Shown piece by piece: positions 2,419 to 22,250 of a DNA stretch of 25,321 bases. The stretch lies in assembly GCF_006345805.1 (NCBI RefSeq), contig NW_021836053.1, positions 1 to 25,321 of the forward strand, given 5' to 3'. This stretch comes from Octopus sinensis. Its lineage: Eukaryota. The notes below the pieces were generated by a model. That model searched no databases. It saw only the letters and a program-made list of their open reading frames with translations, and was not told the DNA's origin. The position numbers and the translations under genes were made by a program. Each line of letters starts with the position of its first letter. Position 1 is the first letter of the stretch.

Positions 2419-2452
<34 letters not shown>
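2288..2452. repeat. (TATG)n then (TA)n microsatellite
   Basis: Direct reading. Confidence 0.95.
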
Positions 2453-2453
<1 letters not shown>

Positions 2454-2736
2454 GCGAGAATGAAGCAACAAGAATGGATAGGTTTTTAGTACAATCGTTT
2501 CATACAAGGACAGGCTTTATTAAAAGTTGTAAAAATTACAGCATATAAACGTGTCCCGTACTCATCAGCTAAAACATGTGAGTTCTCTAGACATCCTAGT
2601 GGTTGAGGCTATACTCATGAAGTAAAGTAGATAATTAAGTAACATAACAGATTTCCAAAGTTCATTAAAGTTCTTTAAAGATGATGTACAGTCTTATCAC
2701 AGAATTTTAAAAAAGTTCTAATAGCATCACAGAGAA
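2454..2736 (-). repeat. Left arm of ~285-bp inverted repeat
   Basis: Reverse complement of 3891-4176, with 2 substitutions and 3 nt of indels seen by eye. Confidence 0.97.
2484..2574 (-). ncRNA. Type I hammerhead ribozyme (minus strand)
   Basis: Minus strand reads ttttag-CTGATGA-gtacgggaca...tgtccttgtat-GAAAC-gatt-GTA^ctaaaa. Predicted cleavage between 2490 and 2489. Confidence 0.82.
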
Positions 2737-3007
2737 GGTGACCTAATCCATAGAGCACATATGAATTTCCAGCGATATGATGAGGGATTATATACTCACA
2801 GAAGACAAATTTATCCATTGTTAATCACAACGAGGTGGGTCTCAATTCCTGCTTATTAGCATTACAGAGAGGTGAATAATCCTTGTATAGATGCACAATT
2901 CCAATGGTGTAGATGTAAGTTTCCAGAGAAATGAAGAGGAATTTCATATTCACAGGCGATAAATTTATCAATGGTTGAACACAATGAGGTATGTATCAAT
3001 TCTTGTT
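2721..3007. repeat. Diverged tandem duplication of ~140-150 bp
   Basis: tagcat.acagaga.ggtga...tttccag.ga.atga.gagg.att..ata.tcacag..ga.aaatttatc.at.gtt.a.cacaa.gaggt occurs at ~2721-2853 and ~2857-3007. Confidence 0.8.
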
Positions 3008-3890
3008 ATATGATTAGGTATGTTGCCACATTAATCACATTACTGCTATTTACAAGAGGCTGTAGCTATTTAACTTTTAAAGGCTGAAGGGCTTTCTAGA
3101 GAGGCCAAGAATAGAAAGGGAAGGGAATAGAAGAAAAGAGAGAAAATATAGGAGGAGGGAGCAAAAAAAGGGGGGGGAAGGGGACTAAAGAAAGAGAAAG
3201 AAAAAAGAAAAAAGAGAATAAGAAGAAAAACAAAAAAAGAGAAAAGAGAAAGAAATAGGGAAGAAGGGAAAAAATAAAATAAAAAAGAGGGTTCTAGTTA
3301 TACAGAAGAATTAGTAGACGGCAAGTCTGTTTTAATTTACAGGCATCTAGGAACTAGAGGAGAATATTATTCTATGGCCAGTAAAACAGCTAATTTATTG
3401 CTGTTGAAATCAGCTATGATTTAAAGAGAATCTAAAGAGATAACACAGTCAGGGGTTAGGGGTCAGATGCTAAAATCAAAAGAAAATACATTAGGAAAAT
3501 CTAAGATAATCTTATCAAAAAGTCAATAAAACTTACTTATTTAATTTATTCATTTTATTGTCTTAAGGAGTTGCCGTTATTATTCATACATTTACGGACT
3601 ACAGGTCAAATCTTAGAAGATCATTCAAGGTGTTAGGGGATTGTCTATCATAATGAAGATAATCATATTATCACCGAGGGGGTAGCCTTATTTATTTAAT
3701 TTTGAAATAGAATTATGGGGCTATAGTATCTCATTTTATTTTATTAGAGTTATGCTACTTAGATTAGATTAAGTTAGGAATTAAAATTAAAAATTACAAT
3801 TAAGATTTAAAATTAAGAATTTAAAAATTATGAGTTTGAAATTAAATAAAGCCTCAATTAAGCAGCGTATAAGTACTATTCATTTCCCTG

Positions 3891-4176
3891 TTCTCTGTGA
3901 TGCTATTAGAACTTTTTTAAAATTCTGTGATAAGACTGTACATCATCTTTAAAGAACTTTAATGAACTTTGGAAATCTGTTTATGTTACTTAATTATCTA
4001 CTTTACTTCATGAGTATAGCCTCAACCACTAGGATGTCTAGAGAACTCACATGTATTTTAGCTGATGAGTACGGGACACGTTTATATGCTGTAATTTTTA
4101 CAACTTTTAATAAGGCCTGTCCTTGTATGAAACGATTGTACTAAAAACCTATCCATTCTTGTTGCTTCTTTCTCGC
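3891..4176 (+). repeat. Right arm of ~285-bp inverted repeat
   Basis: Reverse complement of 2454-2736. Confidence 0.97.
4056..4146 (+). ncRNA. Type I hammerhead ribozyme (plus strand)
   Basis: Stem I ttttag(4056-61)/ctaaaa(4141-46); core CTGATGA 4062-68; stem II gtacgggaca/tgtccttgtat enclosing 4069-4128; GAAAC 4129-33; loop gatt; NUH triplet GTA 4138-40. Confidence 0.82.
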
Positions 4177-4291
4177 TTATAATCACCCCACATTACTGTT
4201 GTTAAACAGTATAGTTTTTTTTGGTGCATCTAAGTTGGTACCATATTCAAGTAAATTCATTTAAATTAACTTGAATCTTTATTGCTTTTTG

Positions 4292-4571
4292 TATATATAT
4301 AATATATATATAGATACATACATATATACATACATATACATACATTTATACATACATACATAATACACACTACGTGCATACTGAGCATATGCATGAAAGA
4401 AAGAAATGCTGTATACAAGAGACCAAGCACAGACATTTCTTTCTTTCTTTCTTTGTGGGTATATATATATATTATATATATATAATATATTATATATATG
4501 TATGTATATATATATATGTATATATGTATATATATGTATATATATGTATATATGTGTATATATGTATATAC

Positions 4572-4924: not shown

Positions 4925-5920
4925 ATGCAACACATGCAAACACTGTTCACATATATAGGACAGCTGTTGTTACATATATAGATAACACAATTCAAATATC
5001 TGGAGCAAATATCTAGGACAGTGACACTACTGTTGCATGCACAAGGGTCGCAAATCTGACGTAGTATTGCTGTTGTTGCATCCAAACTCACAAACACTGG
5101 AACATATCTAGAACCATGCAACTGCTGTTAAAATGGACGGTGGCATGGTGCAGACATATCTAGGACAGTACTGCGGATGTTACATCTGGACAAATACTGC
5201 TGACATATCTGGGACAATGTTCCTGAAGTTACCTGCACAGTGTCACATATCTGGGACAGTGCTGCAGATGTTCGATGCACAAACACTGCGATATGCTAGG
5301 GACAGTGTAACTGCAGTTATATGTACAGTTGCCACACTCTAGGACAGTGCTCCTAAAGTTACATGCACAAATGCTGATCGCATACCTTACACAGTGTTAC
5401 TGCCATCACATGCATTGTGGTCACAAATCTAGAATAGTCTTCCTACAGTTACATGAACAATCACTGTTCACATACTTAGGACAGTGTAACTACCATCACA
5501 TGCATTGCGGCCACAGAACAAAGATAGCGTTCCTGAAATTACATGCACAAACACCGCTCACAAATCTAAGACAGTGTTGTGCTTGTTACATTGTTCATTT
5601 ATCTAGGCCAATGCTATTTCAATTATATGTATTCACATATATCTAGTACAGAATTTCTGCTGTTACATGCAGAATGGTTATATATTTGGGACAGTAATGC
5701 AGGTATTACACGCACAAAAGTTCTTGAAATTTGATTTTTGTTGTTGTTGTTGTTGCTGCTATTGTTAATGTCAGTGTTGTTACTGTTACATGCACAAACA
5801 TATCTAGGACACTGCTGTTGATGTTTTATATACAGTGGTCACACATAAAACACCCGAAACTATTCTCGGACAATATTACCGTTATTGCTGTCGCTGTTAC
5901 ATGCACAAATATCCTCGACC
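4925..5920. repeat. Degenerate minisatellite, ~40-50-bp monomers with a local 90-bp dimer
   Basis: Recurrent acatatctaggacagtg...gttacatgcacaaa. ccatcacatgcattg occurs at 5403 and 5493. Confidence 0.85.
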
Positions 5921-17827: not shown

Positions 17828-17906
<79 letters not shown>

Positions 17907-17918
17907 TAATAATAATAA
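17828..17918. repeat. (TAA)n target tract
   Basis: Direct reading. Confidence 0.98.
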
Positions 17919-19389
17919 AGGAGATGGTATACATCATGCTACTATGAAGGAAAAAATAAGAAAGGAATACTATAGGAGAATAAGGCTTGTACTGAAGACT
18001 GAACTCAACTCCAAAAATTGCATTGAGGTCATTAACACCCTGGCACTTCCAGTAGTCCAGTACAGTTTTAACATCATTAACTGGAACCTTACGGAACTCC
18101 AACACTTGGACAGGAAGACAAGAAAGTTACTGACATCCAAGAGCATGCACCACCCTAAGGCAGATGTAGACCGCTTGTACCTACCTAGAAGCAGCGGGGG
18201 GAGAGGAATGATGCAATTAGAGCTGTGCTATAAGACCTCTACTGTAGGAATGAACAGGTACCTATCTAGTACAAAGGACTGGATGCTGCGACTTGTGTGC
18301 GAACACGAAAGCAGCAAAAAGCTACATTCTATTGTCAAGGAAGCTTATAAGTTCGAAAGGGAACTAGACATTAACCTTGAATCAGATGAAGAGCCGGAAA
18401 CCACTGCTACCGAGCAAGCAAAGCGAATCAAGCAGACTGCAAAAAAGAACGGGCAAAATCAAATTGAGAGGCGGTGGAGCCAGAAGCCCCTGCATGGACA
18501 ATATATTCTCCGAAGCCAAAATGCTGATGTAGACCAAGCAACAACCCATCAGTGGCTGAAGAGCTCTGGATTGAAAGCAGAGACTGAAGGCTTCATAATG
18601 GCAGCACAAGATCAAAGCTTGTTTACCAGAAATTACCAGGCTAACGTTCTCCGAAACGGTACTGACCCTAAATGCAGATTCTGCGACACATTTGACGAAA
18701 CGATAGACCATCTCGTTTCGGGATGTCCTGTGCTGACACCAAACGAATACAAAAATCGCCACTATAGGGTAGGACAGTATATACATTGGAAGATATGTAA
18801 ACACTACAAATCCGACACTCCTGCTAACTGGTATGAACACCATCCTCAGCCAGTTGTTGAAGGTAAAGATGTCACCATCCTCTGGGATTTTCAAGTCAAC
18901 ACTGACAGAACGATCAAGGCTAATCGACCAGACATAATTGTTAAAGACAGGGAAGAAAATACCTGCAGACTATTAGAAGTAAGCGTCCCCACTGATAAAA
19001 ATGTATCTGTCAAGGAATTTGACAAACTTAGTAAATATAAGGACCTGGAAATCGAAATACAGAGGATGTGGAATCTTAAAACAAAAACTGTTCCTGTTAT
19101 TGTAGGTGCCCTAGGTATGATAAAAAAGGGATGTCAGAAACACCTAGACAATATCCCTGGAAAACCATGTCTCAAGGAAATCCAAAAGATAGTGCTAACA
19201 AGTACTGCCCACATCCTTAGAAAAACCCTATCAATGTAAATGTTTGTGTTTGTATTACATGGAGATATATCTCTACTTCCCCTCCCCAAGCTTTCAGCTA
19301 TATTTCAACAACTCTTAACCTTCACTTGCCCTAGGGCGCTGGGTGTGCCCCGGCAGGTGATTGCATCAAACATGCAGATTAAAAGTAAA
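17919..19389 (+). mobile_element. 5'-truncated R4/Dong-clade non-LTR retrotransposon inserted in (TAA)n
   Basis: Uninterrupted ORF, 150-bp 3'UTR, (TAA)n on both sides. Confidence 0.92.
17944..19239 (+). CDS. C-terminal half of RLE retrotransposon polyprotein (post-RT thumb/linker, CCHC zinc knuckle, restriction-like endonuclease); RT catalytic core absent
   Basis: HHPKADVDRLYLPRSSGGRG, ETEGFIMAAQDQ, CRFC-x8-H-x4-C, RH..VGQYIHW, NRPDI...EVSVP...KLSKYKDL, VIVGALG. The frame is also open upstream to ~17920. Confidence 0.92.
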   Translation: MKEKIRKEYYRRIRLVLKTELNSKNCIEVINTLALPVVQYSFNIINWNLTELQHLDRKTRKLLTSKSMHHPKADVDRLYLPRSSGGRGMMQLELCYKTSTVGMNRYLSSTKDWMLRLVCEHESSKKLHSIVKEAYKFERELDINLESDEEPETTATEQAKRIKQTAKKNGQNQIERRWSQKPLHGQYILRSQNADVDQATTHQWLKSSGLKAETEGFIMAAQDQSLFTRNYQANVLRNGTDPKCRFCDTFDETIDHLVSGCPVLTPNEYKNRHYRVGQYIHWKICKHYKSDTPANWYEHHPQPVVEGKDVTILWDFQVNTDRTIKANRPDIIVKDREENTCRLLEVSVPTDKNVSVKEFDKLSKYKDLEIEIQRMWNLKTKTVPVIVGALGMIKKGCQKHLDNIPGKPCLKEIQKIVLTSTAHILRKTLSM

Positions 19390-19414
19390 TGACAATGATA
19401 ATAATAATAATAAT

Positions 19415-20201
19415 CCCAGCAATGTTTGAGAAGCTCAGGACTCAAAGCAGAGACTGAAGGATTTTTAATTGCAGCACAAGATCAAAGCACCCCCACCAGA
19501 AATTACCAAAAACATATAATGAAAAGAAACATAACAAGTAACTGCAGAATATGTGGAGATGGACAAGAAACAATAAATCATATTATCTTTGGCTGCCCAG
19601 TCCTGGCTAAGAAGGAATATATTCACAGACACGACAGAGTTGGGACCTACATAGTTTGGAAGCTATGCCAACAATATGGAATAACAACAGAAAAAAGATG
19701 GTATAAGCGCACACCAGAAAAGGTAACAGAAAACGAGAAAGCAACCGTACTGTAGGATATTCCAATACACACAGATAAAGAAATTAAGGCCAATAGGCCA
19801 ATATAGTTGTCAGAGATCATGAAGAAAAAAATGCTTTCTAATTGATGTATCAATACCAGCAGATGACAACGTTTCTCTAAAAGAAATGGAGAACATTTCA
19901 AAATACAGAAACCTGGAAACAGGGGTAACTCGGTGGAATCTAAAAACAGAAACAATTCTTGTCATAGTAGGCGCATTAGGTATGATAAAAAAATATTCAG
20001 ACAAATACATAACAAAACACCAGGACTTACAAATATATATAACTCAGAAAATTGCACTACTGGGCACTGCACACATCCTACGCAAAACACTTTCAATACA
20101 GTAACCATGAGAGCATCACAGCAAACCACAGCACATACCCAAGGCACACACAGCTGCGCTCGGTAGTGAAGTGAAAGCACGCTATAAAAATAAAACTACT
20201 G
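19415..20201 (+). pseudogene. Decayed 5'-truncated R4/Dong element of a different family
   Basis: SSGLKAETEGFLIAAQDQ, CRIC..ETINHI..GC, RHDRVG; stop at 19753-19755 and frameshifts; ends QKIALLGTAHILRKTLSIQ* with a distinct 3'UTR and (TAA)n flanks. Confidence 0.9.
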
Positions 20202-20434
<233 letters not shown>

Positions 20435-21560: not shown

Positions 21561-22250
21561 TGTACGTCTTTCCAGTATGGCAGCAATAATAATAGTTAAG
21601 TTAAGTTAAGTTAAGTTAAGTTTTTGGCTCAAAAAGGAAAAAGCAAGGCCATGTAGGGGGACATGGAGTTATGTACAGGGAGGGTGTTCATGCAAAGAGT
21701 TCAGGCCATTTCTGGTCAAGAGAGACTTTGAACCGAGCGGTCGTCGGCATCTTCACTATCTCGTTCGGCAGCTTATTCCACAGATCCGCAACCCGGACAG
21801 AGAAAGTCCCTCTCCTTCGATTGAGATGAAATCGTTGCAGATAGAGCTTTTCGGAGTGACCCCGCAGCCGACGCTCTGGAGGAGGAGTGAAGAACAGCTC
21901 TTTCGAGAGGTTACACTTTCCGCTTATGATGTTGTGAGCAAGAATAATAAAGATATGAAACAATGGAGTGAGTGAAAGTGGGACTAAAATTAGTGTACAC
22001 GAGGGTAGGCGTGGAGTCTCAGAGCCTTGGCTAGCAACCCACCTTGTGATACTGTCACGATGAAAATACTGGTGACTGCACAACTTTATAAATGTTACCT
22101 CTCAATGAGTGATATCAAAATTAAATAATGACTATAATTGCGCTAACGGGACTGGATCTGTTTACAGTGAAGGTGCCACGCACGGCAGGCAGGGACTATC
22201 TGATCAAGTTCTGGCAGGTCGTCATCAAGCTATCGATCAGGACAAAAATC
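21561..22250 (+). repeat. Second copy of 17234-17577, interrupted by a LINE at 21595-21942
   Basis: Near-identical sequence from tgtacgtc.ttccagtatggcagc to caggacaaaaatc. Confidence 0.95.
21595..21942 (-). mobile_element. 5'-truncated CR1-type LINE 3' end with (TTAAC)n tail
   Basis: RLRGHSEKL...FSVRVADLWNKLP...FKVSLD is the typical CR1 ORF2 C-terminus; stop at 21688; (CTTAA)n tail; aataata flanks both sides; empty site visible in the 17234-17577 copy. Confidence 0.9.

Follow-up and report, generated by a model that had tools for sequence, protein, structure and literature searches.

What kind of element carries two hammerhead ribozyme motifs that face outward from a pair of long inverted arms? 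Such a unit lies at positions 2454 to 4291 of a 25,321-nt stretch of the Octopus sinensis genome (contig NW_021836053.1), the whole of which was analyzed and is referred to here as the window. An earlier sequence-only reading had proposed a young non-autonomous ribozyme element, mobilized by Penelope-like elements and possibly belonging to an undescribed family. We instead conclude with high confidence that the 1.84-kb unit is a pair of 3' ends, each truncated at its 5' side, from a single autonomous Hydra-clade element; the two are arranged head to head within a (TA)n tract and were likely produced by a single target-primed insertion. The window feature is a known by-product of Penelope-like retrotransposition with a known insertion architecture, and this ORF-less copy was probably dead on arrival.

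Two truncated 3' ends meet at a short microhomology

The inverted arms lie at 2449-2736 (read on the minus strand) and 3891-4181 (plus strand). They are identical in 285 of 291 aligned columns, matching the ~98% first reported, and differ by three substitutions and three gap bases in two gaps. The spacer between them (2737-3890; 1,154 nt) has a longest stop-free frame of 75 codons, and (TA)n repeats flank the unit on the left (2422..2452) and on the right (4292..4312), so the description of an ORF-less spacer of 1.15 kb with TA-repeat flanks holds. The unit is asymmetric: the right arm carries an additional tail of 115 nt (4177-4291, plus strand) before the TA repeat.

The unit resolves into two copies. 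Copy 1 (2454..3895, minus strand; 1.44 kb) is a 5'-truncated 3' untranslated region (UTR) of an autonomous Penelope-like element. It is 96.3% identical to the 3' UTR of L031, a copy that bears the ORF, differs from copy L037 by 24 substitutions over 1,435 aligned nt, and begins about 126 nt past the parent's stop codon (an offset measured in L037). It terminates at a "short" 3' end, 36 nt beyond the hammerhead cut site. Copy 2 (3891..4291, plus strand; 0.40 kb) is inverted, more strongly 5' truncated, and has a "long" 3' end that recurs in 921 genome matches, each followed by TA; it is 98.3% identical to both pseudo-LTR ends of L031. The tail separates the short from the long 3' end, and in tandem copies it continues through the ORF's 5' leader to its ATG. 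The inverted arrangement noted at first is thus one of two 3' ends meeting head to head at TTCTC (3891..3895), a 5-nt microhomology common to both copies (defined as their BLAST overlap), with no TA between them.

Position 2453 is an extra base; read on the element strand, it is a G in place of the T found in tail-bearing arms. Copy 1 also contains two internal 3' UTR repeats of 91 nt (2766-2856 and 2920-3009; 78% identical by self-BLAST). The left flank of the insertion is single-copy, and no empty allele of the site was found in the assembly.

An autonomous element with the spacer in its 3' UTR

Arm and spacer are both high-copy in the genome at 97 to 99% identity among the best 40 candidates scored; the arm is not single-copy. 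The proposed young age was right. Other copies run past window position 3895 into a coding region. L031 combines, all on one strand, a pseudo-LTR, a three-piece ORF, and a 3' UTR that corresponds to window positions 3895 to 2454; L033 has an uninterrupted ORF of 947 amino acids (aa) (L033:2246-5089, protein P0121) followed by the same 3' UTR at 88% identity. In L037, the cut-to-cut period is 4,593 nt; the ATG follows the upstream cut site by 210 nt, and the stop codon precedes the downstream one by 1,544 nt. The spacer is therefore ordinary 3' UTR sequence, belonging to an autonomous Penelope-like element of 4.6 kb that encodes reverse transcriptase (RT) and a GIY-YIG domain. The suggested Penelope-like origin of the pseudo-LTR hammerheads was correct, and the linkage to an RT and GIY-YIG ORF was found in both L031 and L033. 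It had also been allowed that the spacer might prove to be the UTR of an already catalogued autonomous Penelope family; this is largely the case, in that the UTR is that of an autonomous element.

These copies weigh heavily against the idea that the unit spreads as a whole, be it as a non-autonomous ribozyme element or as a retrozyme whose terminal arms are inverted. The absence of an ORF and the high copy number of arm and spacer would fit, but the spacer runs on into the RT ORF in other copies, and arm lengths vary from locus to locus with no fixed internal structure. A 34-mer spanning the junction has one match in the 2.72-Gb genome, the window itself; therefore, the window unit has not been amplified as a non-autonomous family. 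Non-LTR retrozymes, moreover, are described as tandem direct repeats in the available part of the source (10.64898/2026.07.22.740005), whereas the window pair is inverted. We regard this explanation as very improbable.

The 947-aa protein has YRDD, RRIRWKT (RWK), ADKTGN (in which DKG is changed to DKT), a C-terminal GIY-YIG-like motif (VIYKC...YIGCT...R...H), a CKCRIKSKC linker (CxCx5C), CQLC (CxxC), and CVH (CxH); by inspection, it has no CCHH in the endonuclease. The 117 homologues that were aligned all share residues C808, C810, and C822. A total of 802 homologues of 670 to 2,000 aa were found, most of them ~700 aa long, and two Asn-rich inserts predicted to be disordered (residues 491-568 and 670-803) make the protein about 240 aa longer than these. 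The predicted structure (from the 117-sequence alignment; mean pLDDT of 80) is confident outside the two inserts, and its best PDB fold matches are telomerase RTs (TERTs). Pfam searches gave no RT or GIY-YIG match for the 947-aa protein and none for the three ORF pieces of L031, nor did a PDB sequence search with the intact ORF, and searching with the protein's alignment added no informative match; the GIY-YIG assignment is based on the motifs and on a Pfam match in the homologue P0001.

The parent is probably an undescribed, young, and unusually long family, assigned to the Hydra clade by motif criteria and a comparison by eye and set apart from Hydra-1_Obim, also by eye, in its sequence. The window unit itself is no separate non-coding element. 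We found no description of the parent family in the published literature, although the supplements of an Octopus repeat paper available in part (PMC13282606) may hold it. A sister family (L045 to L047) with ~60% protein identity has open frames of 842 aa and a similarly long 3' UTR.

One short end is paired with one long end

At the genome level, the 3' half of the hammerhead had 2,114 matches. Ends running into TA numbered 1,094 (short) and 921 (long), and 40 tails read through into the ORF leader; the reversed-pattern controls of all these searches gave 0. The two 3' ends are fixed, one 36 nt and the other about 155 nt beyond the cut site (the latter being 151 nt in the window copy), and each sits just before a TATA-like word. 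The extra G seen in the window is common: it replaces the T of tail-bearing arms, just before the TA target, in 78 of the first 100 short ends listed. It may be non-templated or derived from the target.

Outward pairs were frequent. The first 100 hammerhead matches on contig C1 formed 65 clusters, 32 of which had an outward pair; 2 were direct, 31 were single, and none was inward. Sixty loci yielded 30 outward-pair rows, or 24 distinct pairs after the removal of six repeats. All 24 combined one short with one long end and had TA-rich flanks on both sides, and 16 had a junction overlap (by BLAST edges). The 5' truncation points and arm lengths differed at every locus. In an ordered sample of exact-match ends (100 short and 48 long), all 26 neighboring pairs were outward and of the short-plus-long type, and no short-plus-short or long-plus-long neighbors occurred within 12 kb. 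We did not find this pairing rule described in the published literature.

Could such pairs arise from two independent insertions or from a later inverted duplication at the DNA level? TA tracts are insertion hot spots, and only 2 differences separate the window arms over 283 sites. Against this stand the outward orientation of the C1 pairs in the face of no inward ones, the constant pairing of short with long, and the absence of TA between the copies. Both arms also carried the same subfamily marker in 18 of 18 pairs, 16 of which belong to one subfamily. Because the family is so young, its variants say little on whether the arms of a pair share a template: one variant was shared versus eight found in a single arm, and substitutions in the main subfamily amounted to 0.22% within pairs versus 0.34% between pairs. 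We consider either of these origins highly unlikely. Least probable of all is a DNA transposon of the miniature inverted-repeat (MITE) or fold-back type, with long inverted repeats at its termini and a duplicated TA target. Long inverted arms, TA flanks, and the lack of an ORF would suit it, but the unit is asymmetric, with a 115-nt tail on one side only, the inner boundaries of the arms vary among loci, and the arms derive from the 3' end of an RT element with a linked RT and GIY-YIG ORF.

Returning to target-primed insertion of one element, the 5' ends offer a further view of the process. Several full-ORF copies have a 5' end that joins TA directly, without an inverted partner; therefore, double priming is not obligatory. 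Among 30 ORF-start loci, 2 could not be parsed, 5 extended at least 1,339 nt upstream, and 23 (including two duplicates) were scored. None of these 23 had its upstream 5' end at the hammerhead cut site, the ends ranging from -1,127 to +118. There is thus no genomic sign that the template owes its 5' end to cleavage, in a small sample and with the proviso that a seamless circle would give the same picture. The spread of 5' ends is compatible with both a long tandem transcript and a circle.

Hammerhead motifs with a long stem II

In each arm, an outward-facing type I hammerhead motif combines CTGATGA and GAAACGATTGTA, set apart by a stem II region of 60 nt, with a stem I of 6 bp. In the right motif (4056..4146, plus strand; predicted cut after 4140), stem I pairs TTTTAG (4056-4061) with CTAAAA (4141-4146), CTGATGA starts at 4062, and GAAAC starts at 4129; stem III is palindromic. 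The mirror motif on the left (2484..2574, minus strand; predicted cut after 2490) has CTGATGA from 2568 and A17 at 2490. A motif-plus-pairing scan of both strands of the window found only these two. An Rfam search of the window, which had been suggested as a check, returned 94 matches at E<=1 with no hammerhead family among them, a miss that is probably due to the long stem II.

The claim of full type I hammerheads stands as far as the core motifs and the paired, covarying stems are concerned. The motifs are not of the compact canonical form, having a 60-nt extension of stem II and a G.U at pair 10.1-11.1, and they are "intact" at the sequence level only. Across 12 sequences (the window and sister subfamilies), 89.7% of cells were paired and seven pairs had changes on both sides; stem I showed A-U to G-C and U-A to C-G switches, and stem III took the form of varying near or perfect palindromes. 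Covariation was 0.29, compared to 0.19 in shuffled data (0 of 500 shuffles) and at most 0.11 with slid partners, although the relatedness of the 12 sequences can inflate the comparison with shuffles. CUGANGA was intact in 104 of 106 arms (chosen by the 3' half of the motif and roughly de-duplicated). The sister family bears a hammerhead of its own, in which stem II is 50 nt long and the palindrome is a different one. Taken together, the stem covariation and the long-stem-II hammerhead of the sister family indicate that the motif is under selection in the parent element.

On its own, the window arm is predicted to favor a competing fold, at -15.5 kcal/mol versus -6.8 kcal/mol for the active-like monomer. 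Stem III is a self-complementary 8-mer that is unlikely to close within a monomer, and stem III 8-mers are predicted to self-pair at -5.8 to -10.0 kcal/mol. The hammerheads would then likely cleave only as a dimer or with the help of protein, and the modeled folding preference fits the dimer- or protein-assisted cleavage reported in the available parts of PMC4209133 and PMC11167929.

Two further hammerhead-like sequences were noted. A divergent copy (L048:1950-2110) has GTG at the cleavage triplet and is predicted to be inactive. At L034:2693 (minus strand), a second, compact hammerhead has a 16-nt stem II and a different stem I but the same stem III palindrome; lying ~600 nt past the 3' end of the element, it probably belongs to another element.

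Other repeats in the window

Elsewhere in the window, a 444-aa frame at 17905-19239 (plus strand), directly after an (AAT)n tract, is like the C-terminal half of a non-LTR retrotransposon protein and has a weak zf-RVT match (E = 7e-4); we take it to resemble R4/Dong-type elements with a restriction-like endonuclease. A broken related fragment at 19414-20104 (plus strand), 50% identical to this frame over 113 aa, is followed by (AAT)n at 20202-20433. The end of a 137-aa frame at 21688-22101 (minus strand) resembles the C terminus of a CR1/L2-type LINE. Degenerate tandem repeats of 88 to 90 bp occupy 5154-5577.

A possible route to asymmetric pairs

By analogy with an Anolis element, we propose a double-nick, double-priming route. 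The GIY-YIG domain of the element would nick both strands of the self-complementary TA repeat, and each nick would serve as a primer for the telomerase-like RT, which would start inside the element RNA. The priming sites would lie just before a TATA or ATATAT word able to pair with the nicked end, with the short site used on one strand and the long site on the other. Both cDNAs would stop early and then be joined by microhomology. The template would be either an uncleaved tandem RNA or a re-ligated circle, because every inserted end spans the cut site, and the hammerheads would travel as passengers of the pseudo-LTR.

The pairing of one short with one long end might even reflect an asymmetric double-priming machine, in which a protein dimer would hold two element RNAs paired through stem III and start at fixed, strand-specific sites. 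We offer this tentatively and think it rather unlikely; one variant of it would have a single hammerhead-made circle read twice. Were it true, the family, with its roughly one thousand nearly identical insertions and its intact ORF, would offer a clean natural read-out of the role of Penelope hammerheads.

The locus in the window is unremarkable, being transposon debris of a kind already described. Its parent seems to represent a very young and high-copy lineage of the Hydra clade, undescribed and about double the length of published members, and the elongated stem II is retained among sister families down to ~60% protein identity. With the two 3' ends separated by ~120 nt, it is easy to score which end was used. 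The one-of-each pairing bears on how Penelope-like elements produce inverted copies and on whether their hammerheads act in vivo. Read-through transcripts of outward pairs would form long fold-back duplexes that may mask the ribozyme.

Comparison with known systems

The cited sources are used here as far as their text was available. Hydra-clade elements are characterized by RWK, DKT, CxCx5C, no CCHH, and CxxC plus CxH near the C terminus (PMC8557442, section 11), and the parent shares all of these along with a C-terminal GIY-YIG domain, a type I hammerhead in its 3' end or pseudo-LTR, and a (TA)n target. Among Penelope-like elements in general, inverted copies that lack their 5' part are typical, as is a tail on just one side, and an inverted 5'-truncated copy is described for the Hydra-clade element Penelope-13_HM (PMC8557442). 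The parent differs in its dimensions. It measures 4.6 kb, compared to 1.1 to 3.0 kb for the Hydra elements tabled in the same source, where a generally short length (<3 kb), which the parent exceeds, is a tendency and not diagnostic. Its 947-aa ORF has two Asn-rich disordered inserts, its stop-to-cut distance is 1,544 nt, 60 nt separate its core boxes (versus loops II of 3 to 10 nt on stems of 3 to 7 bp), and its tail is 115 to 119 nt (versus 30 to 40 nt) (PMC8557442). Hydra-1_Obim (2,507 bp, "no pLTR," compact hammerhead; PMC8557442) is clearly different by eye in both protein and hammerhead. When five short motifs of named Hydra elements were compared with 121 proteins, that of Hydra-1_Obim was absent and two others occurred in two proteins each, the motifs being too short to serve as anchors for a tree.

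The Anolis Poseidon element PAc (PMC11167929) has two internal RT start sites that define a tail, its protein cuts both strands, and its hammerhead is protein assisted and dispensable in vitro. The parent resembles it in having two internal 3' ends downstream of the hammerhead that define the tail and in its AT-rich target. PAc belongs to another clade, however, and its ORF starts inside the hammerhead, whereas the parent's ATG lies 210 nt after the cut. Priming in PAc is reported as non-homologous (PMC11167929), whereas the ends of the parent abut TATA-like words that might base-pair with the target.

Dual hammerheads on opposite strands, 100 to 700 bp apart in truncated Penelope-like elements, were reported in 2014 (PMC4209133). 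The window shares with these the opposite-strand pair and a palindromic helix III suggesting action as a dimer; its helix II is much longer, and pair 10.1-11.1 is G.U in the window subfamily but a conserved G-C there. Non-LTR retrozymes likewise combine a type I hammerhead, a non-coding sequence, and a link to Penelope-like elements. They are, however, described as tandem direct repeats amplified as units, whereas the window holds an inverted, one-off pair of UTR fragments.
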